Shown: in pieces, positions 1 to 21,552 of the stretch | Position numbering within the stretch: position 1 is the stretch's first letter | Layout of the letters: every line of letters starts with the position of its first letter | Assembly: GCA_015063545.1 (NCBI GenBank) | Contig: SVTX01000003.1 | Location: 5,913 to 69,912, forward strand | Length of the DNA stretch: 64,000 bases | Direction of reading: 5' to 3' | DNA from: Oscillospiraceae bacterium | Lineage (GTDB): Bacteria; Bacillota; Clostridia; Oscillospirales; CAG-272 | Position numbers and translations under genes: made by a program | Notes under the pieces: model-generated | The model's input: only the letters and a program-made list of their open reading frames with translations | What the model was told of the DNA's origin: nothing | Databases searched by the model: none

Positions 1-3000
1 CGTGTACAGCAGAAGGATCCAAGTCCAGAGCGTGTGCTAACGGATGTGGCGATAAGCAGACAGAGACAATTCCCGCAAAGGGACACTCCATCAGCGCAGA
101 GTGGGCAACAAAGACACCCGCTACATGTACTGAGGCAGGAGTAGAAATCAAGTCTTGTACGGTATGCTTCGTTGAACTCGAATCTCAGGAAATTCCCGCA
201 ACAGGACACTCTTGGGGCAATGACGCCGAGGCAGGCTGGATCCAGACAATGGCACCCGGATGTACCACGGACGGAGAAGAGACCAGAGTTTGTGCTAACG
301 GATGTAACACATCTGAAACACGTCCCGTAGCTCAGCTTGGACATACAGAATCCGGTTGGACAACGGACTACGACGCAGACTGTGAAAACGCAGGACGCGC
401 GTACACATACTGTGAAGTATGCGGCGATGAGCTTCAGTCCAAAGAAATTCCCGCACTCGGACACAACTACGTTGAGACAGGCAGAGATGAGCCTACGTGT
501 ACAGAGGACGGAACGATACACTACGAGTGTACAAACGGTTGTTACATTCCCAAGACGGAAAATATTCCCGCAACAGGACACACCGAAGAGATAATTGATG
601 CAGTAGAGGCAACCTGTACATCTACAGGTCTTACGGAAGGCAAGAAGTGTAGCGTATGTCAGGCAACGCTTGTGGCTCAGGAAGAAGTTCCCATGAAGGA
701 ACATACAGAGGAAACAATTCCCGCAGTTGACGCAACATGTACGGCAACAGGTCTTACGGAAGGTAAGAAGTGTAGCGAGTGTGGCGAGATACTTCAGGCA
801 CAGGAAATTGTTCCTATGATTCCTCACACTACTGTAATACTTCCCGGAACAGATGCAACATGTCTTGATACGGGTATTGAAGAGGCAACTCAGTGTACAG
901 TATGTAACAAGATGTTTGACCTCAGAGGAACAGAGATCACAGAACGCATAGTTCTCTCTGCTCTCGGTCATGACCACCAGTTCCTTAAAACCGTTGAGGC
1001 AGGATGTATCACGGAAGGTTATGACATTTACAAGTGCGTACGTTGTGACGACAGCTACGAGGATAATTTCGTTGACGCTCTCGACCACGAATACGACGAT
1101 AACCTTGATACAGAGTGTAACAGATGCGGTGAGACAAGACTTCCCGACTGTGACCACGTATATGACAACGCATGTGATGGCGTATGTGATATTTGCGGAA
1201 CGACAAGAGTTCCCGCAGACCACGTTCTCGATGATATCGAAGGCAAGGATGCAACATGTACCGAAACAGGTCTTGAGGCTATCACAGAGTGTACCGTTTG
1301 CGGACAGAAGTTCAATGCTGACGGTGAGAAGATAGACGAACAGCCTATCATCCCTGCACTTGGCCACGCTTACGTTGACCACGATGCTCAGGCGCCCAAC
1401 TGTACTGAAATCGGTTGGAACGCATACCAGACATGTACAAGATGTGATTATACAACTTACGAAGAAATCGCAGCTCTCGGACATACCGAGGAGATTGTTC
1501 CCGCGGTTGACGCAACTTGTACGGCAACAGGTCTTACAGAAGGTAAGAAGTGTAGCGTATGTCAGGAAATCCTTGTAGAACAGGGTGAAATTCCTGCTCT
1601 CGGACATCCTACTAAGGAAGAACTTCCCGTTAAGGCTCCTACCTGTACAGAAACAGGTCTTGAGGCGGCAAGCAAGTGTACGCTTTGCGGACAGGTATTT
1701 GACGCTGAAGGCAACGAGATAGACGAGCAGAAGGTAGTACCTGCTACAGGACACAGCAATAAGGACGTAGTAATTGCTCCCAACTGTACAAATGGCGGTT
1801 ATACTATCCACCTCTGTACCGTTTGCGGAGAAGAAACAGCTCCTAACTCTGACTTTGTTCCCGCAACAGGTCATACAAATACAATCTGGATCACCACAGT
1901 TAAACCCACATGCTCCGAGGCAGGCTCCAAGTATGAGCTCTGTACGGCTTGCGGTGAAAAGACCGGTGCAACAGATACAATAGCAACAACCGATCATACA
2001 TACAAGAGCATAGTAGCTCTCCAGCCCACATGTACTGCAGAAGGTTACACCAAGTCCATCTGTACGTCTTGCGGTGATGAACAGACAACCTCAATTCCTG
2101 CAACAGGACATACAAGCACAGAGTGGATAATTACTTCTGCTCCTACTTGTACGCAGACAGGTCTTAAGGATGAGATCTGTAGCATTTGCGGAACTACCGT
2201 AACCGAGGACGTTGAGGTTGAGGTTACAGAGCATACATACGTTGTAAGCTCCGTAGTAGTTCCTACATGTACGACAAGCGGTTCTACAACGTACATTTGT
2301 ACAGTATGTAACGATACGTACACAGGTAATGAAACCGAGGCTCTCGGACACACATCCGGTGGATGGGTAGTTGAAAATGATGCAACCTGTACAGAAGCAG
2401 GCTCCAAGTACGAGGTTTGCGGAGTGTGCGGTGTCAAGACTGGTAAGACCGAGACAATTGAGGCGCTCGGACACGTTGAGTCTGCAAGCACAACGGCTCC
2501 CACATGTACAGAGGACGGTTACACGACCTACACATGTAGCGTATGTAACGCAACAAGAACAGAAACCGCTACAGGTTCTGCAACAGGACATATAAGCGGC
2601 GGCTGGATCATTGATTCCGAGGCTACCTGTACTACAGAGGGTGCTAAGCACGAAGTATGTAAGGTATGTAAGGAAACCATCAGCACAGAAACAATTCCCA
2701 CAGCTGAGCACAACTACGTAACAGTTGAGACAGAATCCACATGTACAACTCAGGGTACTGTAACTACAACTTGTAGCGTATGCGGAGACACATCCACAAC
2801 TCAGAAGGAACTTCTCGACCACGTAAGTGGCGGTTGGATAGTTGATACTGATCCTACATGTACAACGACCGGTTCTAAGCACGAAGTATGTAAGAATTGC
2901 GGCGGTGAGACAGGCAATACTGACACAATTCCCGCTCTTGACCATAACTACGTAACAGTTGAGACGGAGTCCACATGTACAACTCAGGGTACAATTACCA

Positions 3001-6000
3001 CAACATGTACTGTATGTGGAGAAACATCCACAACTCAGAAGGAACTTGCAGCTCATGTAAGCGGCGGTTGGATAGTAGAAAATCAAGCAACATGTACTAC
3101 TGCAGGCTCCAAGTACGAGATCTGTGCAGTATGTGGACAGAGAACAGGTAACACAGATGTTATAGCGGTTCTTGGACACAACTACACAAGTGAAACAACA
3201 GAGCCCACATGTACGGAAGGCGGAATTACTACCTACACATGTACGGTATGCGGTGATACATATACAGACAACGCAACTTCCGCAACAGGCCACGTAAGCG
3301 GCGGTTGGGTAGTAGAAAGCGAAGCAACCTGTACGGCTACAGGCTCCAAGTATGAAATATGCGGAGTTTGCGGCGCGAGAATGGGTGATAGCGTAACTAT
3401 TGATAAGGTTGAACACAGATACGTAGCGAAGGTAATACTTCCCACATGTACAACCGAAGGATACACAACATACACTTGTGAAACATGTTCTTACAGCTAC
3501 ACCGATAATACAGTAGGCGCAACAGGACACGTTGAAAGCGACTGGATGATCGACCAGGCGGCAAGCTGTGACAACAATGGCTCCAAGCACACAGTATGTA
3601 CTGTTTGCGGCGCTACTGTAAACACAGAAACCGTTATCGCAACAGGTCACCAGAACACAACAAGTGTTATAGCTCCCACATGTACAACTCAGGGTTATAC
3701 AATAACAACATGTACGGTTTGCGGCAAGTCCGAAAACAGTGACTACGTTTCTGCAACTCATACTTCCGTAATTGATGCGGCGGTTGAGGCAACGTGTACA
3801 CAGCCCGGTCTTACCGAGGGTGAACACTGTAGCGTTTGCGGCTTCGTAATGAGCGCACAGAGCACAGTTCCCACTCTTGACCATACATACGACAATGAAT
3901 TTGACTCTGACTGTAACGTATGTGGAACAGAAAGGGCAATTGCGAACTGCGAGCACAACTATGGCACATGCACAGGCACGATTTGTGCTAACTGCGGACA
4001 CGAAAGAGTAGCTCCCGGTCACGTAGCAACAGTAGTTCCCGGTTATGCGGCAACTTGTGAAAACACAGGTAAGACAGATGGCACAAAGTGTGCAGTATGT
4101 AACATTACTCTTACACAGCAGGAAGAAATTTCCGCAAAGGGACACTCCGCTGACATAGCAGAGGCAACATGTACACGTAACAGCATTTGCGTAGATTGCG
4201 GAACGATTCTTGACTTTGCGCTTGGCCACGGATTCAACGGAACAACTTGGGAAACAGTGGTAGCTGCAAGCTGTTCGGTAGAAGGATACGAGCATGAGCT
4301 CTGTTCCGACTGCGGTGAATTCACAGGTAACTATCGTACAATCGATAAGATCGCACATGCAGAGAGCGAATGGATCACAGATGTAGATGCAACTTGTGGA
4401 ACAGATGGTTCCAAGCATACAGAATGTACTGCTTGCGGCGAGGTCATCTTCACACAAACCATACCTGCAACAGGCGCTCACACAGGCGGAACTGCAACAT
4501 GTCAGAGCCAGGCAACATGTGATGTTTGCGCAACTCTCTACGGAGAACTTGGCGAGCATACTCCCGGCATAGAGGCAAGCTGCTCTAACGCTCAGTACTG
4601 TACGACATGTATGGCTGAGATCGCTGTTAAGCTTGATCACAACTTTGTGGCAGGCGAGATAACAGTTGCTCCTACTTGCATCGCAAGAGGCGAGCAGAAG
4701 TACGTATGTACTTGTGGAGCAGAAAGAATTGAACTTATTGATGCAACAGGTGCACACACTCTCGGCGCGGCAGCAACCTGCACAGAGGGACAGAAGTGTA
4801 CTGTATGCGATCAGATACTTGTTAATGCAACAGGACATACAGGCGGAAACGCAACCTGCATGACTCAGGCGAAGTGTAGCGTATGCGGTGATGCTTACGG
4901 AAACGTAGAGGCTAACGCTCATACATACGACAATGCTTGTGACGCTTACTGTAACGATTGCGGATACAACAATACAGAAGCGGCTCACGCAGAGCAGACT
5001 GTACCCGGTACAGACGCAACATGTATAGCAGACGGACTTACCTCCGGTAAGATCTGTGCCGTTTGCGGACAGACAATAGTTGCTCAGACAACTATTCCCG
5101 CAACAGGACATACTTACGACAGCGCAAGCGATGCTGACTGTAACAACTGTGGTGCTGTAAGATGCTCCAGACACGTATATGATAACAGATGCGACGCTAT
5201 CTGTAACAACGAAGGTTGCGGATACGAAAGAGAAGTAATTGACCATTACTACACAAGCGATTGTGATGCAACATGTAATGAATGTGGCGCAACAAGAGCT
5301 GCAGGCGCTCATAAGTACTCCAACGCTTGCGATACATCGTGTGACGAGTGCGGCGAGACAAGAACCGTAGGTGAGCATACATATTCTTACAGCTGTGACG
5401 CTATCTGTAACGAGTGCGGTGCGATCAGAGATGCTCAGCACCAGCCTGTAGGCGGAACATGTAAGGACAAGGCAACTTGCGCAATATGCGGAGTGGTTTG
5501 CGGCGAGCTTGATGCAAGCAAGCATACATACGATAACACATGTGACGTTTACTGTAATGGATGCGGCGCTGAAAGAAGCATTACTCACAGCTATACAGAT
5601 AAGAATGATTCTGGTTACCACTGGAGTGAGTGTAGCGTATGTAATGCTAAGAAGGATATAGCTGCTCACGTTTATGACGGTGATTGCGATACAACTTGCG
5701 ATTGCGGCTACATAAGAACAACGGCAGGACACGTTTACGATAATGCTTGCGATGCTGAATGTAATGAGTGCGGCGAGACCAGAGTTGCGGAGCACAGCTA
5801 CGACAATGCTTGTGATGCTATCTGTAACGTATGTAGCAAGATTAGAACTGTGGGCGAGCACCTGTACGACAATGATTGCGACATAACATGTAATGAGTGT
5901 GACGCTGTAAGAATTACAGAGCATGCTTACGACAATGCTTGCGATGCTGACTGTAACGTATGCGGACAGACAAGAGAAGCAACTCACGTTTATGACAACG

Positions 6001-6884
6001 CTTGTGACGTTGACTGTAACAGCTGTGGAGAAGTAAGAGACGCTGCTGATCATGTATTCGGCGAATGGACTTCTACGGAAGCAGGTCACTACAAGTCTTG
6101 TGAGGTCTGCGGTGTAACGGGTGAATACAGAGACCACGTTTACGCTAACGATTGCGCAGAGACGTCCATCTACTGCGCAGTATGCGGATACGAGGGCAGA
6201 ACGTATGACGACTTGGTCGGCCATACCTACGATAACGCATGTGATACTACATGTAATTTCTGCGGTGATGTAAGAAAGACATACCATAAGTTCGATTATG
6301 ACTGTGACAGTGATTGCGCTGAGTGCGGATACACAAGACCCGATAGCGAGCTCAAGCATACTCAGAATCCTCCTTGCTCCGGTAAGTGCGTATTCTGCGA
6401 AGCAGAAATGATTCCCGCGGCGCATACTTACGATCACTCTTGTGATACGACATGTAACCTCTGCGGATTCGTAAGAGAGGTTGGAGATCACGTTTATGAT
6501 GCTGTTTGCGATACTCAGTGTAACGTTTGCGGATTTATCAGAGAAGTTGAAAATCCTGTTCATGAGTACGACAACTCTTGCGACCAGACATGTAACTTCT
6601 GCGGTGCAATAAGAGACATCAAGCACGACATGGATTTTGCATTCAATGAAGAAGGTCACTGGCAGGAGTGCGTAATTTGTGGATACAAAGCATCGGATAA
6701 GCCTGCGGCACACAGAGACAGATATGAGGATCTTGGTGACGGCACGCACAGATACTACTGTAACAGATGTGCATACGAGTATATCGAGGAACACACATTT
6801 GAGAACGGTGTTTGCGCATGTAAGGCTAAGGAACCCGTAGCGACAGCACTCGCTCTTCCCCCCAAGAAGGAAGAAAACGCATAA
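1..6884 (+). CDS. Giant cysteine-rich repeat protein, 5'-truncated by the window edge (>2,290 aa)
   Basis: The frame is open from the window edge, with the first full codon at nt 3. Nt 3-248 translate as CTAEGSKSRACANGCGDKQTETIPAKGH..., the same module as downstream. Stop is TAA at 6882-6884. There are roughly 40 modules of the form [IV]P-A-[TL]-G-H...C-T-x-x-G-x5-6-C-x2-C-G, then about 20 units of H-x-Y-D-x-x-C-D-x-x-C-N-x-C-G-x-x-R. The N-terminus is off-window, so no signal peptide can be assessed. Confidence 0.85.
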   Translation, partial: CTAEGSKSRACANGCGDKQTETIPAKGHSISAEWATKTPATCTEAGVEIKSCTVCFVELESQEIPATGHSWGNDAEAGWIQTMAPGCTTDGEETRVCANGCNTSETRPVAQLGHTESGWTTDYDADCENAGRAYTYCEVCGDELQSKEIPALGHNYVETGRDEPTCTEDGTIHYECTNGCYIPKTENIPATGHTEEIIDAVEATCTSTGLTEGKKCSVCQATLVAQEEVPMKEHTEETIPAVDATCTATGLTEGKKCSECGEILQAQEIVPMIPHTTVILPGTDATCLDTGIEEATQCTVCNKMFDLRGTEITERIVLSALGHDHQFLKTVEAGCITEGYDIYKCVRCDDSYEDNFVDALDHEYDDNLDTECNRCGETRLPDCDHVYDNACDGVCDICGTTRVPADHVLDDIEGKDATCTETGLEAITECTVCGQKFNADGEKIDEQPIIPALGHAYVDHDAQAPNCTEIGWNAYQTCTRCDYTTYEEIAALGHTEEIVPAVDATCTATGLTEGKKCSVCQEILVEQGEIPALGHPTKEELPVKAPTCTETGLEAASKCTLCGQVFDAEGNEIDEQKVVPATGHSNKDVVIAPNCTNGGYTIHLCTVCGEETAPNSDFVPATGHTNTIWITTVKPTCSEAGSKYELCTACGEKTGATDTIATTDHTYKSIVALQPTCTAEGYTKSICTSCGDEQTTSIPATGHTSTEWIITSAPTCTQTGLKDEICSICGTTVTEDVEVEVTEHTYVVSSVVVPTCTTSGSTTYICTVCNDTYTGNETEALGHTSGGWVVENDATCTEAGSKYEVCGVCGVKTGKTETIEALGHVESASTTAPTCTEDGYTTYTCSVCNATRTETATGSATGHISGGWIIDSEATCTTEGAKHEVCKVCKETISTETIPTAEHNYVTVETESTCTTQGTVTTTCSVCGDTSTTQKELLDHVSGGWIVDTDPTCTTTGSKHEVCKNCGGETGNTDTIPALDHNYVTVETESTCTTQGTITTTCTVCGETSTTQKELAAHVSGGWIVENQATCTTAGSKYEICAVCGQRTGNTDVIAVLGHNYTSETTEPTCTEGGITTYTCTVCGDTYTDNATSATGHVSGGWVVESEATCTATGSKYEICGVCGARMGDSVTIDKVEHRYVAKVILPTCTTEGYTTYTCETCSYSYTDNTVGATGHVESDWMIDQAASCDNNGSKHTVCTVCGATVNTETVIATGHQNTTSVIAPTCTTQGYTITTCTVCGKSENSDYVSATHTSVIDAAVEATCTQPGLTEGEHCSVCGFVMSAQSTVPTLDHTYDNEFDSDCNVCGTERAIANCEHNYGTCTGTICANCGHERVAPGHVATVVPGYAATCENTGKTDGTKCAVCNITLTQQEEISAKGHSADIAEATCTRNSICVDCGTILDFALGHGFNGTTWETVVAASCSVEGYEHELCSDCGEFTGNYRTIDKIAHAESEWITDVDATCGTDGSKHTECTACGEVIFTQTIPATGAHTGGTATCQSQATCDVCATLYGELGEHTPGIEASCSNAQYCTTCMAEIAVKLDHNFVAGEITVAPTCIARGEQKYVCTCGAERIELIDATGAHTLGAAATCTEGQKCTVCDQILVNATGHTGGNATCMTQAKCSVCGDAYGNVEANAHTYDNACDAYCNDCGYNNTEAAHAEQTVPGTDATCIADGLTSGKICAVCGQTIVAQTTIPATGHTYDSASDADCNNCGAVRCSRHVYDNRCDAICNNEGCGYEREVIDHYYTSDCDATCNECGATRAAGAHKYSNACDTSCDECGETRTVGEHTYSYSCDAICNECGAIRDAQHQPVGGTCKDKATCAICGVVCGELDASKHTYDNTCDVYCNGCGAERSITHSYTDKNDSGYHWSECSVCNAKKDIAAHVYDGDCDTTCDCGYIRTTAGHVYDNACDAECNECGETRVAEHSYDNACDAICNVCSKIRTVGEHLYDNDCDITCNECDAVRITEHAYDNACDADCNVCGQTREATHVYDNACDVDCNSCGEVRDAADHVFGEWTSTEAGHYKSCEVCGVTGEYRDHVYANDCAETSIYCAVCGYEGRTYDDLVGHTYDNACDTTCNFCGDVRKTYHKFDYDCDSDCAECGYTRPDSELKHTQNPPCSGKCVFCEAEMIPAAHTYDHSCDTTCNLCGFVREVGDHVYDAVCDTQCNVCGFIREVENPVHEYDNSCDQTCNFCGAIRDIKHDMDFAFNEEGHWQECVICGYKASDKPAAHRDRYEDLGDGTHRYYCNRCAYEYIEEHTFENGVCACKAKEPVATALALPPKKEENA

Positions 6885-6887
6885 AAC

Positions 6888-6920
6888 AAAAAAACCAAAG
6901 TGTCCTTCGGGACACTTTGG
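6888..6920 (-). terminator. Intrinsic terminator for the U32 peptidase gene
   Basis: Hairpin ccaaagtgtcc-ttcg-ggacactttgg at 6895-6920. Read on the minus strand it is followed by a T7 run (plus-strand A-run 6888-6894). Confidence 0.6.
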
Positions 6921-6924
6921 TTAA

Positions 6925-6965
6925 GCATAAATCCCACGGCAACTGCCGTGGGATTTATGCTTTTT
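6925..6965 (+). terminator. Intrinsic terminator for the giant repeat-protein gene
   Basis: Perfect 16-bp stem gcataaatcccacggc / gccgtgggatttatgc with loop aact, followed by TTTTT at 6961-6965. It is interleaved with the convergent gene's terminator. Confidence 0.7.
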
Positions 6966-9012
6966 ATATTCTTCTTGTTGATCCTTCAAGCGGAATCTTT
7001 TTGATATATGCGTGTATGACTTGATCTACTTGTTGAGGTGTTTCTGTGGTAAACATGAAAACCTGATTTGTTACGTTCGCTTTTGAAAGCTCATCGGGCT
7101 TGTCTGACATACAGGTGGGCATGCTGTTATAGATAACGTTTCTGTGTTGCCATTCTCTGGCTACAGGAAAAATAAAGCCTCGTCTGTCCTTGATTTGAGC
7201 AAACCGCATATTGCCGTTTTCTTGCTCGCGTGAAAATTTTTCGCAGGCTTCGCAGCCGTGTGTGTCGCGTATGATGCATTTCTCAAGCGTCATCAGCGGT
7301 ATGCGTCCATACACGACAGTCGCGCAATCTCCCGAAATATCTCGTGTTTGCGGAAGCGTTAATTCGGGGGAGAGGGTGACGTTTGTGACGCCTATTGAGT
7401 TGAGCTTTGCGACGGAGAGGCTGTTTGTAACATTGAATCTGAAATCTCCGAAAATATCAATTCCAAGATCTCTTACCAATTCAATGTTTCCGATGTTTCC
7501 GACCATGGCGCACGTCGCGCCGTTTTTTATAGCGGAATTTATAAGACGCATAACAGCATCTTTTTCACTGTCGAAAATTACAGGCGGCAAGACAAAGCCG
7601 TCTGCTGAGCTGTCGTATCGCTCAAGTGGCAAAAACGTCTTATCGAAAAATTTTTTTGCCTTGTCGGTTATCTGTGATGGGAACAAAAATCTTCCTATAC
7701 GCTGTTTTTTTCTTTCTTTTGAGGGTGGCGCCGGGAATTTGTTCGTGAATTTTGGAATCTGCTTTGTTGTTAGCTCCGACAAGAGCTTATCTATACCGCT
7801 TCTTCGGAGACTGTTCAGTCTTGAGACGGGAAGCATCAACCCGTTGTCCAGAGAAATGCTTATTTTGTTTACGATGAAAGGCGTATCTCCGAGCTTTAGC
7901 ATGCTTTTTTGTACGCAGTCCTCGTCAATGGGGGCGTTTATGGCAGTTTGCGGAATGTCGCCTTCTGCACTTACCATCAGGTCACCAAATGAAATTTTGA
8001 GGCGGCAGGGAGAATCTCTGTGTATGTCAACGTCGATATCGATGGGTAGCTTTCGGTTTATTTTTGTGAATTTTTCGGCGCTCATAGACGCGCTTTTATC
8101 TGCTTCTGAGCGAATGCCGAGCATTTTTTTGTTTATGTTTTTTGTAAAATATCCATCGGTAAATCCGCCGCGGGAAAAAATATCCGCAAGCTTTTTCATT
8201 TCCTCGCCCGAAGCGTTTCTGCCCTCGTCGAGCAGCCTTCGCCATATACCCGTTACCGCGTGAACGTATTCGGGGGCTTTCATTCTGCCCTCTATTTTTA
8301 GGGAATGTACGCCGCTATCCAAAATTTCCGTTACGTGAGTAGCGAGCGATAGGTCTTTTAGTGAGAGGGGATATTGTGAAGGGCACGATGAAGAAGAAGC
8401 GCAATAAGGTAAACGGCAGGGTTGAGCGCAAAGACCTCTGTTTCCGCTTCTTCCGCCGACCATAGATGAAAACAGACACTGTCCGGAGTGAGAAACGCAA
8501 AGCGCGCCGTGTGTGAATATTTCAACCTCCAAGGGGTTGTTATCCACCAAATATTTGATATCCTCAAATGAAAGCTCTCTGGCGGGGACAAGACGGGAAA
8601 ATCCCATTTTTTGAAGCTGTATTCCCGCACCTGCGTTGTGCGCTGACATTTGCGTGCTTGCATGAAGCGGCATGTCGGGCATGTGGGATCTCAAAAGCTC
8701 TGCCGCGCCCATATCTGCTACGATGAACGCGTCAACTCCGCACGTCGCGGCATTCTCCGCGCATGACAAAAAGCCCTCTTTTTCTCTGTCGAAAAGCAGG
8801 GTGTTGAGAGTTACGTATACTTTTACGCCGTATGAATGAGCAAGCTTTACGCACTCGGAAAGTTCTTCGGAGGTAAAGTTTTTGGCATTTATACGGGCGT
8901 TAAAAGAGGTGCCGCCCACATATATTGCGTCGGCACCTCCGTCAACAGCCGCCATAAAAGCTTCTTTTGAGCCTGCGGGGCTTAACAATTCGGGAAGAAA
9001 TTTTTTAGTCAT
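6964..9012 (-). CDS. Peptidase U32 family protein (collagenase-like)
   Basis: 682-aa ORF. The N-terminus ELLSPAGSKEAFMAAVDGGADAIYVGG and the motif EIFTHGALCVSHSGQCLFSS match the U32 signature E-x-F-x2-G-[SA]-[LIVM]-C-x4-G-x-C. Confidence 0.85.
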   Translation of the reverse strand: MTKKFLPELLSPAGSKEAFMAAVDGGADAIYVGGTSFNARINAKNFTSEELSECVKLAHSYGVKVYVTLNTLLFDREKEGFLSCAENAATCGVDAFIVADMGAAELLRSHMPDMPLHASTQMSAHNAGAGIQLQKMGFSRLVPARELSFEDIKYLVDNNPLEVEIFTHGALCVSHSGQCLFSSMVGGRSGNRGLCAQPCRLPYCASSSSCPSQYPLSLKDLSLATHVTEILDSGVHSLKIEGRMKAPEYVHAVTGIWRRLLDEGRNASGEEMKKLADIFSRGGFTDGYFTKNINKKMLGIRSEADKSASMSAEKFTKINRKLPIDIDVDIHRDSPCRLKISFGDLMVSAEGDIPQTAINAPIDEDCVQKSMLKLGDTPFIVNKISISLDNGLMLPVSRLNSLRRSGIDKLLSELTTKQIPKFTNKFPAPPSKERKKQRIGRFLFPSQITDKAKKFFDKTFLPLERYDSSADGFVLPPVIFDSEKDAVMRLINSAIKNGATCAMVGNIGNIELVRDLGIDIFGDFRFNVTNSLSVAKLNSIGVTNVTLSPELTLPQTRDISGDCATVVYGRIPLMTLEKCIIRDTHGCEACEKFSREQENGNMRFAQIKDRRGFIFPVAREWQHRNVIYNSMPTCMSDKPDELSKANVTNQVFMFTTETPQQVDQVIHAYIKKIPLEGSTRRI

Positions 9013-10562: not shown

Positions 10563-10598
10563 ATTCAGAAAAATTTGCGGAGAGGAGGATCAAGCCTT

Positions 10599-13500
10599 AT
10601 GCAGGAAAAAATAACCGGTGTAAACGATACAAACTGCCCCGGCGAAAATGAGCAATCGGAAATTTTGTCGAACGAGAATAGCCATGCAAAGGAGAGATCC
10701 GTTCTCGGAAGACGCGACCGCACAAAAAAAATCACAGACAACCAATCCGCATACATACATATTTGTTGCGATGAGACCGGGCAGATAGAAAAAATTATAA
10801 GGAAGTACGGATTTGAGTGTGAGGCTTACGGAATTGACGCAGAGCTTTCTCAGCTTTACACCAGCATTCACGGATCGAGCTTTGCTATTATCGTAGAGCC
10901 GCAGAACTCCGAAGAAAATTTGAAAAGAATGTCGTATCAGATTCGCGAGGCAAGACTGTGCGGCATAGAGGTTGCGATAATATGTAGGAGCGATTATTCG
11001 GAGATACATAAAAAGTTCGAGGCGGAGGAAGGGATCACTCTCATTAAGAGCGACCGTCCCCGCACGGAAATATTCCACGTTTTGTTTATTGAAAAACTGT
11101 GCCGACTGCCACAGACGTTCAATGATTCTGACTGCCGCAGAGATGAGCACGGAGAAATAATCCGACACGCCATAGACGCGTGGAGGGGAGTTGCGGCATC
11201 TGAAAAATTTATAGCAGATAGCTATATGTCGGGTGAGGTGCTTCCCAATCTTTTAAAGCAAGCGGTGTTCTGGTATAACAGAGCAAAGGAGCACGGAAGC
11301 CTCAGGGCCGGAGTTTCTCTCGGAGATTGCTATTTTTCCGGATTGGGATGTCCCGAGAACAAAAAGAAAGCTTATGAAATGTATTGCGATGCCGCGGATA
11401 TGGGTGTGGCAGAGGGACATTTTAAGGTAGGATATTGCTTGCTTGAAGGCTACGGCTGTGAGACAGACCTTTTGGAGGCATATCGCTCTTTGCGCCGTGC
11501 GGTTGAGCTTGGCCGAGAGCTTTATGAAGCGGAATATTGCGTTGGAGTGTGCTTGCGTGACGGTAAGGGCGTCGAGGTGTCCGTATCCGAGGCAAAGGGG
11601 CATTTTCTTAAGAGCGCAAAGGGAAATTATTCTCCCGCGCTGGTGGCGCTTGGAGACATCTATTCTGCACGTAGCGGAGATGACTTCAATCCCGCGTTGG
11701 CATTTGAATATTACAGCAGGGCGGCGGATAACGGCAGTGTAGAAGGTCTTTATAAAAAGGGTTTGGCGTTGTCATTTGGCCAGGGATGTGAACAGAATAC
11801 ATCCGAAGCGTTCAGATGTTTTTCGATCGGCGCAGAAAAAAAGGATGAAGCATGCTTGTGCGCACTTGGAATGTGTTATGAATACGGAATAGGATGCGAC
11901 TATGATTTTGAAACTGCGGTGTCATACTATTCTTTGGCGGCGGACAGAGGATATGCGGCGGCTGTAAACAATCTTGGCGGTTGTTATTATTACGGCCATG
12001 GTGTATATCAGGATAAGAAAAGAGCTATGGAGCTTTTTGAGAGAGCTTCGTTGCTTGGAGATTCAAATGCAACAACAAGACTTGGCATATGTTATCAGCA
12101 GGGCGATGAATGTGAGCAAAATCCTCACAAGGCGTTTTCATATTTTTCTGCGGCGGAACAGCAGGGAAATGCTATAGCGGCATATAAAAAAGCGTTGTGT
12201 TTTGAGGTCGGACAGGGAATAGAACAAAGCTTTAAGGGCGCATTTGAAAGCTATCAGCGCGCAGCGTCACTCGGGCATACGGAATCCATGTGGCATGCGG
12301 CAAATTATCTTTCAGACGGAGTGGGAACTCCGAGAGATTATTGGGCGGCGTATAAATGGTATTCAAAAGCGGCGGAGCAAGGTCACGCCGACAGCTTCTA
12401 CCAAATGGCGCATTTCAGCTTCAAGGGTATAGGAACCGTAAAGAATTATACAAAAGCGTTTTTCTGCTATAACAAGGCATTTGAGCTTGGGGCGAGCAGA
12501 ATGGACTGCGCTTTGAGAATAGGAATATGCTTGCTCAGAGGTCTTGGAGTTAAGGAAAACCGATTCAAGGCGCTTGAATGGTTCAAAAGAGCCGCGGCTC
12601 TTGGCTCGTCGGATGCAATGTTTTTGTGCGGAGAGAGTTTGTTTTTCGGTTCGGGATGTCAGCAGAATTACTTTGAAGCGGCAAAATATTATGCATCTGC
12701 AATAAACGCAGGACACACTCGGGCAATACTGTCTTTGGCATATTGCTATGAGAGTGGGCTTGGTGTGCCGAAGAATATAAACAAGGCATATTCTTTGTAT
12801 ATAAAGGCAACCGAGCAGGATAGTCCCGAGGCAAACTATAAAGCGGCAGAGCTTATGGCAAAGGCAGGAGAATACGGAGACACGCTCAATAAATTGCTTA
12901 ATAAATCAGCAAACAAGGGATATGTTCCTGCGGTATTGATGCTGGGAATCCTTTATGACGAGGGGCTCGGTCTGCCCGAGAATGCCGACAAGGCGGCGCA
13001 GAAATATCAGAAGGCGATATCTCTTGGCATATCCAAGCAGAGAATGTTGCTGTTCTCCTTCCCCGAAAGGGATACAGAGAGAGTGAATGCCGCACAGAAG
13101 GCAACGGTCGATGCAACTTATAGACTTGGAATGCTCAGGGGAAGGTATGCAACCGACCCCGCGCAATTCGCTCGCGCGTTTGAATATATTGCAGGCGCAG
13201 CGGTTACGGGATCGGAAAAAGCTCAACGCGAGATAGCAAAGATATACGAGGCGGGAGGAGATCTTAACTTGTATTTCAAAGGTACTCGCGACAAAGATAT
13301 TCAGCTTGGCGCGGCTGCTGTGGCGGGCGCGATGAACCGTTTGGGAGATACGTGGTTTGACGGAAAGCCGTTGCTCTCAAAAAATGACAGGGCGGCATTC
13401 AAATGCTACAAAATTGCCGCAGAGATGGGAAGCTCTGATGCGGCGTACAGCCTCGGTTGGTGCTTACGTCACGGCGTCGGAACCAAGGTGAATGACGTGG

Positions 13501-13694
13501 AAGCGGCAAAATGGCTCAAAAAATCAGCCGACAGCGGAAATCCTCACGCGGCATACAGTTACGGCCTTTGTTGCGAGGAGGGAAGCGGAATGGAACATCC
13601 AAACCTTCGCGAAGCGGCAAATTATTATCGAAAAGCGGCGGCGGCAGGTCACGTTGAGGCTAAAAAACGACATGTAAATATCATGGGCAAATAA
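10599..13694 (+). CDS. Large Sel1-like (SLR/TPR-type) repeat protein with a non-repeat N-terminal domain
   Basis: ATG at 10599 is preceded by GAGGAGGA. About 20 repeats follow the A-x-[YW]-x-[LM]-G-x-C-Y-x-x-G-x-G-x-x-x-[DN]-x-x-x-A-x-x-[WY]-[YF]-x-[KR]-[AS]-A pattern, for example EAAKWLKKSADSGNPHAAYSYGLCCEEGSG. The first ~230 aa are not repetitive. Confidence 0.8.
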   Translation: MQEKITGVNDTNCPGENEQSEILSNENSHAKERSVLGRRDRTKKITDNQSAYIHICCDETGQIEKIIRKYGFECEAYGIDAELSQLYTSIHGSSFAIIVEPQNSEENLKRMSYQIREARLCGIEVAIICRSDYSEIHKKFEAEEGITLIKSDRPRTEIFHVLFIEKLCRLPQTFNDSDCRRDEHGEIIRHAIDAWRGVAASEKFIADSYMSGEVLPNLLKQAVFWYNRAKEHGSLRAGVSLGDCYFSGLGCPENKKKAYEMYCDAADMGVAEGHFKVGYCLLEGYGCETDLLEAYRSLRRAVELGRELYEAEYCVGVCLRDGKGVEVSVSEAKGHFLKSAKGNYSPALVALGDIYSARSGDDFNPALAFEYYSRAADNGSVEGLYKKGLALSFGQGCEQNTSEAFRCFSIGAEKKDEACLCALGMCYEYGIGCDYDFETAVSYYSLAADRGYAAAVNNLGGCYYYGHGVYQDKKRAMELFERASLLGDSNATTRLGICYQQGDECEQNPHKAFSYFSAAEQQGNAIAAYKKALCFEVGQGIEQSFKGAFESYQRAASLGHTESMWHAANYLSDGVGTPRDYWAAYKWYSKAAEQGHADSFYQMAHFSFKGIGTVKNYTKAFFCYNKAFELGASRMDCALRIGICLLRGLGVKENRFKALEWFKRAAALGSSDAMFLCGESLFFGSGCQQNYFEAAKYYASAINAGHTRAILSLAYCYESGLGVPKNINKAYSLYIKATEQDSPEANYKAAELMAKAGEYGDTLNKLLNKSANKGYVPAVLMLGILYDEGLGLPENADKAAQKYQKAISLGISKQRMLLFSFPERDTERVNAAQKATVDATYRLGMLRGRYATDPAQFARAFEYIAGAAVTGSEKAQREIAKIYEAGGDLNLYFKGTRDKDIQLGAAAVAGAMNRLGDTWFDGKPLLSKNDRAAFKCYKIAAEMGSSDAAYSLGWCLRHGVGTKVNDVEAAKWLKKSADSGNPHAAYSYGLCCEEGSGMEHPNLREAANYYRKAAAAGHVEAKKRHVNIMGK

Positions 13695-13711
13695 GAGAGT
13701 TATCAATACTC

Positions 13712-13740
13712 TTGACAAGCCGGAGAATATATGATATAAT
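13712..13740 (+). promoter_or_regulatory. Sigma-A type promoter driving the tyrS T-box leader
   Basis: TTGACA (13712-13717), 17-nt spacer, TATAAT (13735-13740). Confidence 0.7.
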
Positions 13741-13746
13741 CAAAAA

Positions 13747-14024
13747 GTAAAAATGAAAGGCTATGATAGGAACAAGTAGCGACAGTACCCCCGATACAGA
13801 AAGTTGTCGGTAGATGCGAGACAAACGGGAGCTTTTGTGAATACATCCTTGAGCCTCATACCGAAAGCGGCGGGTTAACACTGCGGCAAGTAGGCTATGA
13901 CGGGAGCTCCCGTTACAGAGTATGCCGAAAATTCGGCTGATAAGTCCCCCTCGGTAACGTCGGGGAGAATCAAGGTGGTACCGCGATTATTCGCCCTTGC
14001 ATTTTTTAATGCAAGGGCTTTTTT
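13747..14024 (+). promoter_or_regulatory. T-box leader (tyrosine specifier) with intrinsic terminator
   Basis: Conserved T-box sequence AATCAAGGTGGTACCGCG at 13968-13985. Candidate specifier GAA-UAC-A has UAC at 13842-13844. Terminator stem gcccttgc / gcaagggc lies at 13993-14018, followed by TTTTTT. Stem-I-like AGAAAG and GGTAGATG elements lie upstream. The downstream gene is tyrS. Confidence 0.85.
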
Positions 14025-14185
14025 GGCCTTTGAAAAATCCTCCAATACTGCTGTGCTCCCGCATCGTGACTTGACGTAGGGAGCTACGCCTGCGTCTTGT
14101 CTTGAAGAATTTTTCTTCGGTCAACTAAATATATCAAAACATATCAAATACAAAACAAGTAAGAAAACGAAAGGAAATAAAAACA

Positions 14186-15409
14186 ATGGCAATGAAAATT
14201 TACGACGAGCTCGTCGCGCGCGGACTTATCGCGCAGGTGACCGACGAGGAAGAAATCAAAAATCTTATCAATGAAGGTAAGGCAACCTTTTACATTGGAT
14301 TTGACCCCACGGCAGATTCTTTGCACGTAGGTCACTTTATGGCGCTCTGCCTTATGAAGAGACTTCAGATGGCAGGTAACCGTCCCATAGTTCTTATCGG
14401 CGGCGGTACGGCTATGGTAGGAGACCCCTCCGGCAGAACGGATATGCGTCAGATGATGACAAAAGAGACTATCGCTCACAACTGCGAGTGCTTCTACAAG
14501 CAGATGAGCCGCTTTATCGAGTTTGGCGAGGACAAGGCAATTATGGTAAACAATGCGGATTGGCTGCTTGACCTCAACTATGTTGACGTTCTCCGTGACG
14601 TTGGAGCGTGCTTCTCTGTAAACAGAATGCTTACCGCTGAATGCTATAAGCAGAGAATGGAGAAAGGCCTTTCCTTCCTTGAATTCAACTACATGATAAT
14701 GCAGTCCTACGACTTCTACCACCTCTACAAGACATACGGCTGTAACATGCAGTTTGGCGGTGACGATCAGTGGTCGAATATGCTCGGCGGTACGGAGCTT
14801 ATCAGACGTAAGCTCGGCCGAGACGCATACGCTATGACAATAACTCTGCTTCTCAACTCCGAGGGCAAGAAGATGGGTAAGACGCAGTCGGGCGCAGTAT
14901 GGCTTGACCCCGAAAAGACAAGTCCTTACGACTTCTACCAGTATTGGAGAAACGTGGGCGACGCGGACGTTCTCAAGTGCATAAGAATGCTCACGTTCCT
15001 TCCTATGGAGCAGATAGAGGAGATGAACGGCTGGGAGGGCTCACAGCTCAATACAGCCAAGGAAATTCTCGCTTATGAGCTTACCAAGCTCGTTCACGGA
15101 CAGGACGAGGCGGAAAAGGCTCAGGCATCGGCAAAGGCGCTCTTTGGCGCAGGCCCCGGCGCGGATATCCCCACGGCAACTCTTACGGATGAGGACTTTG
15201 TTGACGGCGCGGCAGATATTCTCACAATGCTTGTAAAGAGTGGACTTGTAAAATCCAAGTCTGAGGCAAGACAGGCTGTACAGCAGGGCGGTGTGTCGGT
15301 TGAGGGTGAAAAGATCACCGATATTCGCGCAAGCTTTACCCGTGAGCAGATAGCAGGTGGATTGCTTCTCAAAAAGGGCAAAAAGTCCTTTATGAAGATA
15401 GTTTGCTGA
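14186..15409 (+). CDS. tyrS: Tyrosine--tRNA ligase
   Basis: 407 aa. It has the HIGH-type motif (SLHVGH), a KMSKS-type motif (KMGKT) and a C-terminal S4-like domain. Confidence 0.95.
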   Translation: MAMKIYDELVARGLIAQVTDEEEIKNLINEGKATFYIGFDPTADSLHVGHFMALCLMKRLQMAGNRPIVLIGGGTAMVGDPSGRTDMRQMMTKETIAHNCECFYKQMSRFIEFGEDKAIMVNNADWLLDLNYVDVLRDVGACFSVNRMLTAECYKQRMEKGLSFLEFNYMIMQSYDFYHLYKTYGCNMQFGGDDQWSNMLGGTELIRRKLGRDAYAMTITLLLNSEGKKMGKTQSGAVWLDPEKTSPYDFYQYWRNVGDADVLKCIRMLTFLPMEQIEEMNGWEGSQLNTAKEILAYELTKLVHGQDEAEKAQASAKALFGAGPGADIPTATLTDEDFVDGAADILTMLVKSGLVKSKSEARQAVQQGGVSVEGEKITDIRASFTREQIAGGLLLKKGKKSFMKIVC

Positions 15410-15420
15410 TAGGAGAAATT

Positions 15421-16194
15421 ATGTTTAATAAAAGAAAAATACTTGCTCTTGCGCTGGTGATGTGTATGCTGATTGGAATATTTGCCTTTACGTCGTGTTC
15501 AAAAAAAGCAGATGAGGGCGAAGGCAAAAAGACAACGCAGTCAAATAATCAAGAAGCGGCGGCGCAGGAAAAGCAAATCGTAGATATGAAGGTAATAAAC
15601 GGTGAGCTTTGGGTAGTTTATTCCGACAAGCCGGATGAGCCTGTAAACATCGGCAGAGTGGATAATTTCTATGAGGGAACCCCGGGATTGGAATTCTTTC
15701 TTTTGCCTGACGGAACTTACGGAGTTAAAGGCGGCTCTACCTATTACCTTGAGGAAATAGTTATTCCCGCATACTACAACGGAGTAAAAGTTACCAGGGT
15801 TTTGGACAATGCTTTTTCGTCATATATCAATCTTAAGAAGGTAACATTCCCCGAAACCGTAACTCACATTGATAACAGCGCGTTTAACGCATGCGTAAAT
15901 CTTGAGGTTGCAACTCTGCCTTTGGGTACAAAATCCATTGGAAATAGCGCATTCAGCAACTGTTCTTCGCTTAAAAGCGTGCTTATTGGTGATCAGGTTG
16001 AGAGTATCGGCGAGTTTGCATTTATGAACAGCATCTCTATTTTGAACACGAATATACCAGAGAGCGTGAAGAGTATCGGACGCGATGCTTTCAAAAACTG
16101 TGGCGGAGAAATTTATTGTGAGGTATCCGAGCAGCCCGATACTTGGAGTGAATATTGGAACTCATCATCACTCACGGTTCATTGGGGAGAATGA
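15421..16194 (+). CDS. Lipoprotein with BspA-type leucine-rich repeats
   Basis: ATG at 15421 follows AGGAGA. The signal peptide ends in a lipobox-like FTSC. Repeats such as VTHIDNSAFNACVNLEVATLP / TKSIGNSAFSNCSSLKSVLIG / VESIGEFAF are typical of the BspA LRR family. Confidence 0.75.
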   Translation: MFNKRKILALALVMCMLIGIFAFTSCSKKADEGEGKKTTQSNNQEAAAQEKQIVDMKVINGELWVVYSDKPDEPVNIGRVDNFYEGTPGLEFFLLPDGTYGVKGGSTYYLEEIVIPAYYNGVKVTRVLDNAFSSYINLKKVTFPETVTHIDNSAFNACVNLEVATLPLGTKSIGNSAFSNCSSLKSVLIGDQVESIGEFAFMNSISILNTNIPESVKSIGRDAFKNCGGEIYCEVSEQPDTWSEYWNSSSLTVHWGE

Positions 16195-16260
16195 TCTGGA
16201 TATGTAGTAAAAAGTAACAAAAACAACATTTTAAAATCGCACATTTTGTAACAAAAAATA

Positions 16261-16302
16261 ATAGGGTTTTCCACAGATTTTGTTGTGGAAAACCCTATTT
16301 TT
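16261..16302 (+). terminator. Intrinsic terminator after the LRR lipoprotein gene
   Basis: Perfect 15-bp stem (16261-16275 with 16284-16298), 8-nt loop, then TTTT. The stem arms themselves carry TTTTCCACA / TGTGGAAAA. Confidence 0.7.
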
Positions 16303-16375
16303 GTGTGGAAAAGCGACTTTTTCCTTTGTTCTACGGACTTTCCTGTGTGGAAAAGCCTGTGGAAAATGTGGAAAA
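16267..16375. promoter_or_regulatory. Cluster of six relaxed DnaA-box-like 9-mers
   Basis: TTTTCCACA at 16267-16275. TGTGGAAAA at 16284-16292, 16304-16312, 16346-16354, 16358-16366 and 16367-16375. All fit TTWTNCACA, one mismatch from TTATCCACA. Confidence 0.45.
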
Positions 16376-16406
16376 CCTATTTTTTCCATTTTGTCAAAAT
16401 ATTATC

Positions 16407-17432
16407 TTAAATTGTGCAGATAAGCTTCTCAAGAGTGGTATAGCCGTCACGTGACATTTTGAGTTCAAGATCTGCCGTGCGGCATTTTTCAAGCATATTT
16501 TTGAGACGGTCAACGCCTCTTTTTGACTTGAGAAGGAGGGAAACTTTGTATTCGTGCATTCTCAGCGCGTCGGAGATTTCGTATGACGTCCTTCCGTCCG
16601 CAGCGAGCAATTCTACCGACAGCGCATCACAGATGTTAGAAATTATTTCGCTCATTATGATTATGGGATCGACGCGGCGAAATTTCATATCGCCGAGAAC
16701 TGCTAACGCGCGCTCGCGGTTGCCGGAGGTAAGCGCGTTTGAAAAAGCAAAGGCATCAAACTCGGCGGCAGGAACGGACACTTTGACCACGTCGTCGGGT
16801 GTGACTTCATTTCTGCCTTGCGCAAGAACGTAAAAAGAAATCTTATCAGTCTCTGACGAGAGAGAGAACATGTCTCTGCCGCAACGGTCCACTGTGAGCT
16901 TACATATTTCGGCGGAGGCTGAAACTCCGTTGTGCGAGTAGTGCTTACCTACCCATGTATACAGTCTGGCGGGGGATATCTTCTCAAAATATACGGGGGT
17001 TAAAAATTCCGATAGCTTTGAGAGTAGCTTTGACGGGCGTTTGGGCAAAATTCCGTAGTCAAATCTGTCCGAGGCTACACTGATAATTACCGTGTTGTAA
17101 TCATATTCGTCCAGCATGCTCAAAGCCTGACAGAGCGCGTTTGCCTCGGCGGGTTTGAAGGCGTTCAAATTAAGTCCTGTCACGGTTATAAGCTTTCTGT
17201 CTGCCATCATTGGCATAGGCATTATAGCATCTATTAATGCGTCAGCAGAATAAGATAGTGCATCAAAAGCCATTTGATTAAACATAGCAAAGGTGATATC
17301 GGGGCACAGAGCGTCTTTTGCGGCGTTAAGGGCATGGGATTTAAGATAATCTTCTTCGCCAAAGAAAAGATACGCAGATTTTGGCTTTGATTTTATTTCG
17401 CGCCGGAAATCCGCTTCTTTGATAATATCCAT
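16407..17432 (-). CDS. holA: DNA polymerase III delta subunit
   Basis: 341 aa. The N-terminus ...KSKPKSAYLFFGEEDYLKSHAL... and the overall length are typical of HolA. Confidence 0.8.
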   Translation of the reverse strand: MDIIKEADFRREIKSKPKSAYLFFGEEDYLKSHALNAAKDALCPDITFAMFNQMAFDALSYSADALIDAIMPMPMMADRKLITVTGLNLNAFKPAEANALCQALSMLDEYDYNTVIISVASDRFDYGILPKRPSKLLSKLSEFLTPVYFEKISPARLYTWVGKHYSHNGVSASAEICKLTVDRCGRDMFSLSSETDKISFYVLAQGRNEVTPDDVVKVSVPAAEFDAFAFSNALTSGNRERALAVLGDMKFRRVDPIIIMSEIISNICDALSVELLAADGRTSYEISDALRMHEYKVSLLLKSKRGVDRLKNMLEKCRTADLELKMSRDGYTTLEKLICTI

Positions 17433-17518
17433 GTCCTCACCTCGCTTTCTGCTTTGTTATGATTAAATTATACCATTTTCGGGCGGTCAAGTCAAGTGGA
17501 TTTTGTATGAGTATATCC

Positions 17519-17547
17519 TTGACTTATGTCAAATTGTGTGGTACAAT
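17519..17547 (+). promoter_or_regulatory. Sigma-A type promoter upstream of the MATE transporter gene
   Basis: TTGACT (17519-17524), 17-nt spacer, TACAAT (17542-17547), with TGg immediately upstream (extended -10). Confidence 0.55.
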
Positions 17548-17595
17548 GTAAAAAGAAACGGCAGTTTCTTTTTTTGTGTATATAAGGGAGAGTTT

Positions 17596-18975: not shown

Positions 18976-18978
18976 AAT

Positions 18979-19010
18979 AAGAAATCCGACTGTACCCAGT
19001 CGGATTTCTT
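18979..19010. terminator. Bidirectional terminator between convergent genes
   Basis: 14-bp stem aagaaatccgactg / cagtcggatttctt with loop tacc. A/T runs lie on both sides. Confidence 0.65.
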
Positions 19011-19011
19011 A

Positions 19012-19242
19012 TTATTCAACAACGAGAGAGGAGATCTGAGCAAGAAGCTCGTCTGCCTTGTCTCCTGCATATGTAAGCTTTATGGGCTGACGAAGGTCAA
19101 GGCTGAAAATACCGAGAATGGATTTTCCGTCTACCTTGTAGCGTCCGGATTCGAGATCTACGTCACCGTCAAATCCTACGAGTATGTTTACAAGCTTGTA
19201 TACGTCGTTGATTTCCTTCAAACGAATGTTTACCGATACCAT
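19012..19242 (-). CDS. HPr-like small protein lacking the His15 phosphorylation site
   Basis: 76 aa. VDGKSILGIFSLDLRQPIKLTYAGD aligns with the HPr Ser46 region (KSIMGVMSLG). No GIHARPA-type His motif is present. Confidence 0.6.
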   Translation of the reverse strand: MVSVNIRLKEINDVYKLVNILVGFDGDVDLESGRYKVDGKSILGIFSLDLRQPIKLTYAGDKADELLAQISSLVVE

Positions 19243-19361
19243 GATTTTGTACCTCCTGAAAATTCCTCTGCTTTTGCAGAGCTCTTGATATAATTATATA
19301 ATATAAAAAGGGAATTGTCAATAGTCCGGAATTGATGTAAAATACAAAAACAGGGCGAATT

Positions 19362-20018: not shown

Positions 20019-20031
20019 AAGGGGGTACTCC

Positions 20032-20529: not shown

Positions 20530-20541
20530 GTTCTGTCTCCT

Positions 20542-21456: not shown

Positions 21457-21552
21457 AAAATTAGCCTGTACCACTTGCAAAATATCTGTGTCGTATGTTA
21501 TAATTATATCATGTAAGAAAAGGGAAGTCAATCCCACAAAGGAGTGAATTTT

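Follow-up and report, generated by a model that had tools for sequence, protein, structure and literature searches.

The stretch of DNA considered here, called the window throughout, comprises 64,000 nucleotides of an Oscillospiraceae bacterium (GenBank assembly GCA_015063545.1, contig SVTX01000003.1, positions 5,913 to 69,912 of the forward strand), and its 5' edge cuts through a giant open reading frame (ORF) whose visible product is built from small modules carrying one His and three Cys. The Cys residues are numbered here in the order in which they occur in a module, C1 standing alone and C2 and C3 forming a CxxC knuckle. The way in which C1 is lost and compensated among related proteins indicates that the sites formed by these residues bridge neighbouring repeats, and the giant ORF probably encodes the metal-clasped stalk of an extracellular protein. 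The gene and its repeats occupy the following positions:

1 to 6884, plus strand: 3' part of the giant ORF, 2,293 codons and a stop codon, running off the 5' edge of the window.
84 to 5066, plus strand: array of long and approximately 26-residue (medium) His/Cys3 modules, 32 and 6 in number, among which 4 short ones are scattered.
5109 to 6602, plus strand: array dominated by the short variant, with 14 regular-expression matches among 22 knuckles.
12129 to 22049 of the locus retrieved from JGI metagenome contig Ga0318466_10003693, minus strand: readable part of the giant gene, 3,306 amino acids.

Frame 3 of the plus strand is open from the window edge to a stop codon at nucleotides 6882-6884, giving 2,293 amino acids inside the window; an earlier note on this DNA, made from its letters alone, had ended the ORF at 5103 and so missed 22 knuckles, mostly of a 21-22-residue variant. 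An identical gene is called at 4,550 amino acids on the 114-kb contig Ga0318466_10003693, where the peptidase-U32 gene adjacent to the giant ORF (6964-9012 of the window, minus strand) is identical as well. The part of the 4,550-residue protein that could be read consists entirely of repeats, with 90 knuckles in these 3,306 residues. Recovery of the upstream contig, proposed in the earlier note as a way to find a signal peptide or anchor, yielded 1,013 further residues upstream of the window, all of them modules, but the searches for the N-terminus remained without a match: an exact 50-mer found nothing in genome contigs, an exact 70-mer from the upstream end of the read part found nothing in metagenome contigs, and the useful-length matches of a protein-guided metagenome scan were all relatives with 30-35% identity. 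A 4,548-residue homologue was rejected as the full-length giant protein, being only about 26% identical, and the homologue search of the protein database listed no match longer than about 4,000 residues. The 4,550-residue JGI call has no Pfam hit on record, which suggests that the N-terminal 1,243 residues, at about nucleotides 15,600-19,335 of Ga0318466_10003693 (JGI 3300031555), are also free of the usual anchors and heads, such as SLH, LPXTG and cohesin.

The 2,293 residues in the window contain 14% Thr, 9% each of Cys, Ala, Gly and Glu, and 3.8% His, and they are poor in Leu, Phe, Trp and Met. A 1,567-residue antisense ORF (2091-6794, minus strand) overlaps the giant gene without independent support and is most likely open only through the biased codon usage of the repeat gene. 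Since the closest matches of the tyrosyl-tRNA synthetase encoded in the window (at most 82% identity) come from metagenome-assembled genomes (MAGs) of gut Eubacteriales, Lachnospiraceae and Oscillospiraceae, the host is, by this marker, an uncultured gut Clostridia anaerobe of Lachnospiraceae-like character.

Three repeat classes are obtained when the giant protein is cut at every CxxC. Residues 1-1701 (nucleotides 3-5105) hold 42 CxxC knuckles, belonging to 32 long, 6 medium and 4 short modules, in good agreement with the roughly 40 Cys3/His mini-modules that had been reported for this part; together with the 22 knuckles of the second array, the window part of the protein has 64 modules. When the residues of 1-1701 (8.1% Cys, 3.3% His) were shuffled 1,000 times, long modules appeared 0.22 times on average and at most twice, with 10 CxxC. 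The repeat period is 37-41 residues, rather than the 30-35 first estimated. The long modules, of about 39-41 residues, fit the pattern H-x6-16-C-x2-3-G-x4-8-C-x2-C, with the consensus (I/V)PA(T/L)GH-x8-14-(A/P)TCT-x2-G-x5-6-C-x2-CG. The motif proposed in the earlier note is matched 3 times in its literal form and 18 times when relaxed, and it is a fair consensus of a repeat that is degenerate. Medium modules of about 26 residues fit H-x3-8-C-x4-6-C-x2-C, with the consensus GH-x4-6-ATC-x5-C-x2-C, and short modules of 21-22 residues read HxYDNxCDxxCNxCGxxR. At the DNA level, the tandem-repeat program TRF found no tandem repeat in window positions 1-6900 apart from a 24-nucleotide, two-copy match at 4007-4054. 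Judged by this result, the modules are ancient and diverged, conserved mainly at the ligand positions, and not the product of recent slippage or an assembly artefact; an origin by recent duplication or faulty assembly was dropped.

The same residues stand out across the family. In an alignment of 47 sequences spanning four modules, invariance or near-invariance is in essence confined to the His, the three Cys and a single Gly in each module. A set of 122 proteins supplied 3,427 unique inter-knuckle segments; exactly one Cys besides the knuckle, that is, three Cys in total, is present in 85% of them, and His is found in 99.7% and lacking in 0.3%, which places it above any single Cys of the module in conservation and bears out the three Cys and near-invariant His noted earlier for each unit.

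Neither a Pfam nor an NCBIfam model was found for the repeat, be it in the giant protein, in a second module-bearing ORF of the window (starting at 32355) or in five homologues, and scans of the whole visible giant protein stayed below threshold throughout, with Cupin_1 (11.5 bits) and zf-C2H2 (10.9 bits) as mere noise. A check of five proteins led to the rejection, as repeat models, of the precomputed Pfam accessions PF22058, PF24973, PF22874, PF07496, PF04376 and others, the matches being either real flanking domains (X25, cohesin) or composition matches without a passing stretch; for the PF24973 (EGF_LMN_ATRN) match in one homologue, no stretch passes alone. The family is nonetheless very large: a profile of four modules retrieves 75,366 of 1.84 billion cluster representatives at E<=1e-3 and 21,121 at E<=1e-30, with matching proteins of up to 7,583 residues, the short-module region alone has 1,992 homologues at E<=1e-5, and a word-indexed protein search was saturated, more than 7,300 of the 8,000 candidates that it scored being matches. 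Among the matches listed, the named homologues are mostly a 'hypothetical protein' from Clostridia MAGs. The domains that flank the arrays in relatives are cohesin, dockerin, SLH, Flg_new, LRR_5, Big_2, GDSL and X25, and signal peptides and C-terminal transmembrane (TM) anchors are found beside them as well.

The only meaningful sequence match in the PDB is 9qa6_A, the IgA protease of Thomasclavelia ramosa (IgAse or ThomasA; UniProt Q9AES2), which was already matched by a single sequence (E=1.2e-7) and is matched by the four-module profile over residues 851-982 and 1090-1142 (E=2.6e-10). These stretches are ZBD1 and ZBD2 in one description (PMC12237041) and CTD2 and CTD4 in the other (PMC12415215), and the His/Cys3 module is, by sequence, homologous to them. 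Weak profile matches to C2H2 fingers (E=0.013-0.8) and antibody heavy chains (E>0.05) were put down to composition and rejected, the short-module profile had no match among PDB sequences, and no solved structure of the module was found in sequence or fold searches of the PDB. The literature search for other descriptions of the repeat gave only the two papers on the protease, in which its zinc-binding domains (ZBDs) were proposed in 2025 as a possibly novel Zn-binding periscope fold; known from AlphaFold models and small-angle X-ray scattering (SAXS) only, they are modelled as three-stranded up-and-down beta-sheets set end to end, with Cys/His sites at the subdomain interfaces (PMC12237041, PMC12415215), and SAXS describes CTD2 as a fully extended rod (PMC12415215). 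The earlier view that no curated model or structure exists therefore stands for Pfam, NCBIfam and the PDB but not for the literature, and the match to a characterised family that had been named as grounds for rejecting it exists in part, in domains that are themselves known from models and SAXS. The module is thus very common, was noticed in one protein, and is neither curated nor validated. As a separate observation, the giant ORF contains, at window positions 1200-1300, 3000-3100 and in other places, a subclass of modules without the C1 loop, in which another His precedes C2 by three or four residues (HSYTDKNDSGYHWSECSVC and HDMDFAFNEEGHWQECVIC are examples). This subclass is similar to the 'NHWHEC' subdomain of the IgA protease, and His2Cys2 is its candidate ligand set.

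Structures were predicted with AlphaFold2 for one run of each of two repeat classes:

2331 to 2798, plus strand: four long modules, residues 777-932 of the window protein.
5778 to 6041, plus strand: four short modules, residues 1926-2013 of the window protein.

The model of the long modules, made from the 47-sequence alignment, has a mean predicted local distance difference test score (pLDDT) of 96.0 and a predicted template-modelling score (pTM) of 0.63. It is all-beta, without helix, and has three strands per module of about 39 residues (9-16, 24-30 and 36-43, then 50-55, 63-69 and 75-82, and onward), a succession of sheets that fits the beads-on-a-string fibre suggested earlier. The His residues H7, H48 and H87 stand immediately before strand 1, C20 and C59 lie in the loop after strand 1, C30 and C69 end strand 2, and C33 and C72 occupy the next turn, after which strand 3 leads to the next His. 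In this prediction His and C1 are separated by a beta-strand of 6-8 residues, and in an up-and-down sheet of this kind His, C2 and C3 would lie at one end and C1 at the other, beside the His and knuckle of the next module. The repeating strand order and the published models suggest that the sheets are arranged end to end. A Foldseek search of the PDB with the long-module model gave nothing significant (best E=0.039, TM score below 0.2). For the short modules (35 sequences, mean pLDDT 87.6, pTM 0.55), the model contains only isolated beta-bridges around each CxxC turn and no helix, and Foldseek again returned nothing significant from the PDB (E>=2). The entries of that non-significant list are nearly all small Zn domains (LIM, RanBP2-type, NZF, Nop10, TFIIS-like), a bias that can be taken as a hint only.

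The evidence on which residues share a site comes from asking what accompanies the loss of C1 in the window proteins and the homologues retrieved with them. In long modules without C1, an extra His or Cys stands beside the His of the next module in 54 of 82 cases, compared with 101 of 2,936 where C1 is present (odds ratio 54, nominal p=2.6e-53). At the start of the same module, taken as a control, the corresponding numbers are 40 of 282 and 310 of 3,365 (odds ratio 1.6, nominal p=0.011). Short modules behave in the same way, with an extra His or Cys beside the next His in 69 of 118 cases without C1 and 73 of 1,250 with it (odds ratio 22.7, nominal p=3.7e-44). The compensation in long modules takes the forms HxH (30), CxH (19) and CxxH (4) and is spread over 33 proteins, and in ten short modules a His sits directly at the C1 position. 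Moreover, C1 is preferentially missing where no module follows: it is absent from 186 of 653 array-terminal long modules as against 68 of 2,771 internal ones (odds ratio 15.8), and from 47 of 59 array-terminal short modules. The window protein has three C1-less short modules with another His after them, and in every case CxH or CxxH comes next; two of them lie at nucleotides 3882 and 5109, and the other is the following:

1086 to 1199, plus strand: HEYDDNLDTECNRCG, in which C1 is replaced by Leu, then ...PDCDHVYDNACD, with an extra Cys two residues before the next His.

Compensation of a lost C1 at the start of the next module, exchange of Cys for His, and loss of C1 at array ends together indicate a four-ligand metal site that bridges repeats, made from C1 of module n and the His, C2 and C3 of module n+1, in keeping with the predicted topology. 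By the same pattern four ligands are required per site, and the interchange of Cys and His indicates a metal site and not a disulfide. The earlier preference for an HCCC metal site over disulfides is in this respect supported, since Cys/His substitution fits a four-ligand site, but a site is not made up of the four ligands of a single repeat.

The reading favoured here, and considered probable, is that the giant ORF encodes the stalk of an extracellular protein, a disulfide-free beta-rod clasped by metal at sites between its repeats. A long repeat would form a small antiparallel beta-sheet of three up-and-down strands with hardly any hydrophobic core, and such sheets would stack end to end, a single tetrahedrally coordinated metal ion, most probably Zn2+, fastening each junction. 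Sheet n would contribute C1, from the loop at its far end, and sheet n+1 its opening His and its CxxC pair. The 21-22-residue repeats would likewise share ligands between neighbours, on a scaffold reduced to a minimal knuckle. The product would be a long, semi-rigid rod, and its freedom from disulfides would suit a reducing, anaerobic habitat; in anaerobes, extracellular disulfides are unlikely to be stable. Metal binding, the identity of the metal as zinc, the stiffness of the rod and the extracellular location of the giant protein are all inferred in this scheme. As the published ZBD1 model is about 110 Å long for three subdomains, or about 3.7 nm per long unit, the readable part of the giant protein, with 50 long-type and 26 medium-type spacings in addition to the short ones, would span some 0.2-0.3 µm. 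Such a rod may act as a spacer ('periscope') or fibre, given that in relatives the arrays stand between heads of various kinds (cohesin, dockerin, LRR, lectin-like or enzyme) and anchors of the SLH, TM or dockerin type.

Several points weigh against this reading or qualify it. The p-values of the covariation are nominal, because paralogous repeats were counted, after removal of no more than the exact duplicates. About one third of the internal modules without C1 have no obvious compensating His or Cys, and their sites may use Asp, Glu or water, or stand empty. The ligand geometry between modules was deduced from strand order and covariation, not from distances. Metal in the whole family, the ZBDs of the IgA protease included, is a matter of prediction; 9QA6 was built for S32-N876 only, which leaves the ZBDs outside any experimental structure (PMC12237041). 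Finally, the spacer function of the giant protein is proposed by analogy only, and no C-terminal anchor, LPXTG, SLH or dockerin is visible in it, the C-terminal end reading ...ALALPPKKEENA.

Among the alternatives, an array that binds a metal other than zinc (rubredoxin-like Fe2+/Fe3+, Ni, Co or Cu) and serves chiefly as an extracellular metal store, buffer or redox wire is unlikely. Cys3His and Cys2His2 sets are not specific for zinc, the gut lumen is reducing and has Fe2+ available, and 90 knuckles in the 3,306 residues read would amount to a large metal load, with more possible in 4,550; a role in regulation by environmental zinc has been speculated upon for the IgA protease domains (PMC12415215). 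On the other hand, it is established that Cys/His tetrads in small beta-knuckles are overwhelmingly zinc sites, and the ligand sets of the modules would be coordinatively saturated and placed at inter-sheet junctions, as in structural sites. As for a redox wire, sequence alone is silent on the site spacing that electron transfer would need, and no redox partner genes adjoin the giant ORF.

It is rather improbable that each repeat is instead a self-contained HCCC zinc knuckle, with four ligands of its own and flexible linkers between the beads. Such a unit would account for the ratio of one His and three Cys per repeat period, and it is sterically conceivable in short modules, which hold all four residues within 14 residues and whose AlphaFold2 model has little secondary structure on which to base a topology argument. 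In the predicted long modules, however, His and C1 lie at opposite ends of the sheet, and the published models of the IgA protease likewise place the sites at interfaces. The covariation speaks against it in both classes, as C1 loss is compensated in the next module and not in the same one, and the preferential disappearance of C1 from the last module of an array is at odds with an intra-repeat site.

A covalent role for the Cys residues, in disulfides or in other links of the kind known from EGF-like and further Cys-rich repeats, with a His that is structural and does not bind metal, is very improbable. These proteins are extracellular and Cys-rich (9%), and many extracellular repeats are stabilised in that manner; yet the Cys count per repeat is odd, the most conserved residue is the His, and a lost Cys is replaced by His, either at C1 itself or as HxH by the next His, a substitution that would be meaningless for a disulfide. 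The hosts, moreover, are strict gut anaerobes, and the homologous IgA protease has no disulfides among its 24 Cys (PMC12237041). That the giant ORF is non-functional, a decaying or assembly-chimeric repeat region, as its truncation by the window edge and the overlapping antisense ORF might suggest, is scarcely credible in view of an uninterrupted frame that is identical on an independent JGI contig, ligand columns conserved in DNA without tandem repeats, the tens of thousands of homologous cluster representatives, the high pLDDT of the model and the lack of support for the antisense ORF, best explained by biased codon composition.

The metal-clasped stalk proposed for the giant protein has a smaller counterpart further along the window:

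32355 to 34364, plus strand: second module-bearing protein, 669 amino acids; behind a signal peptide come an N-terminal domain, 10 modules and a linker rich in Pro and Thr, and the C-terminus is formed by a TM helix and the residues KKKNN.

The presence of the same module in this secreted ORF, as the earlier note had recognised, is confirmed, its 10 modules lying at nucleotides 33237-34109. From its sequence features the protein is clearly secreted and anchored, an architecture that confirms, at the level of predicted topology, the extracellular use of the module. The N-terminal domain (about 290 residues, within 32355-33236) has no Pfam match and is presumably a functional head displayed on the 10-module stalk, and the array closes with a module, HTYDSESDEYCNIC, that has no C1, in line with the pattern at array ends. 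A secreted protein of 1,104 residues (29004-32318, plus strand), with RicinB_lectin_2 and a C-terminal matrixin-type Zn-metalloprotease domain (Peptidase_M10, HEFGHSIGYTGH), ends 36 nucleotides before this ORF, and because of this short distance the two genes may form an operon for a secreted protease and a membrane-anchored stalk protein. Elsewhere, the window encodes a 1,039-residue protein with 10 Sel1 repeats (10575-13694, plus strand) and an 888-residue protein with a Ricin-B lectin domain (58830-61496, plus strand), and the matching JGI contig carries an annotated LRR_5 protein (15403-16194).

In gut and rumen Clostridia, a substantial part of what is unannotated in large surface proteins, cellulosome-type (cohesin/dockerin) and S-layer-anchored ones included, consists of this module. 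The clasp rule, by which C1 of one module joins the His and CxxC of the next and is compensated by HxH or CxH, sets the domain boundaries for a family model, yields testable mutants and offers an explanation of how anaerobes could build long, rigid extracellular rods without disulfides. The evolutionary evidence also extends and supports a fold that had been proposed from AlphaFold models of a single enzyme, the IgA protease, a therapeutic candidate. A bolder view, which is speculative and at present doubtful, is that the arrays are widespread extracellular 'metal-zipper' rods of gut Clostridia, with one metal per junction, that sense or store zinc and are not passive spacers. If metal occupancy were reversible in vivo, the stiffness, length and protease resistance of the fibre would change with the zinc of the gut lumen, cohesin, adhesin or enzyme heads would be displayed in a zinc-responsive manner, for example under host nutritional immunity or calprotectin, and proteins with at least 90 sites each would constitute a significant extracellular zinc buffer.

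Among known systems, an identity with EGF-like disulfide-rich repeats was rejected, given three Cys in most segments and the interchange of Cys and His. Eukaryotic tandem C2H2 fingers resemble the modules of the proposed model in binding one Zn per unit, there of about 28 residues, through Cys and His ligands, but they are beta-beta-alpha units with an intra-unit site and act as intracellular DNA binders; this identity was likewise rejected, PF00096 scoring 10.9 bits against a cut-off of 25.2 bits and neither AlphaFold2 model containing a helix. Classical zinc ribbons (TFIIS C-terminal domain, rubredoxin-like knuckles) share with the proposed modules their small size and richness in beta-strands, a CxxC(G) knuckle placed at a beta-turn and a tetrahedral set of Cys and His ligands, and ZBD1 subdomain I has been found to resemble the TFIIS zinc-binding domain distantly (PMC12237041). 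A zinc ribbon, however, has two knuckles per domain, which supply two ligands each, whereas a unit of the giant protein has one CxxC and a lone His and would rely on a Cys of the preceding unit; the zinc-ribbon-like label of the earlier note was given up on account of this single knuckle, and no Pfam zinc-ribbon match above threshold or significant Foldseek match was found.

The G5-E stalk repeats of SasG and Aap, single-layer sheets without hydrophobic core that form rigid rods, have been put forward as an analogy for the ZBDs (PMC12415215). Like the modules in the proposed model, they are tandem arrays that project functional domains from the wall, although they have no sequence or fold relationship to the modules and contain no Cys. 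In Aap, zinc mediates intermolecular dimerisation through His, Asp and Glu, not intramolecular stapling.

The closest system is the IgA protease of T. ramosa. In common with its ZBDs, the modules of the giant protein are predicted to form three-stranded sheet units set end to end, with Cys/His tetrads at the junctions, here deduced from topology and covariation, and with a proposed structural zinc and 'periscope' spacer role in a surface protein of gut Bacillota. Even the ends agree, as the terminal subdomains of the protease lack C1 (ATATT for ATCTT), like the array ends described above. The differences lie in scale and composition: the protease has 3 + 2 subdomains, mostly His2Cys2, in a tail behind an enzyme, whereas in the giant protein at least 90 consecutive units, mostly Cys3His, make up nearly the entire visible protein, and its 26-residue and 21-22-residue variants have not been described for the protease. 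What is new here are therefore the very large Cys3His arrays, the two shorter repeat classes and the evolutionary demonstration of the inter-repeat clasp.

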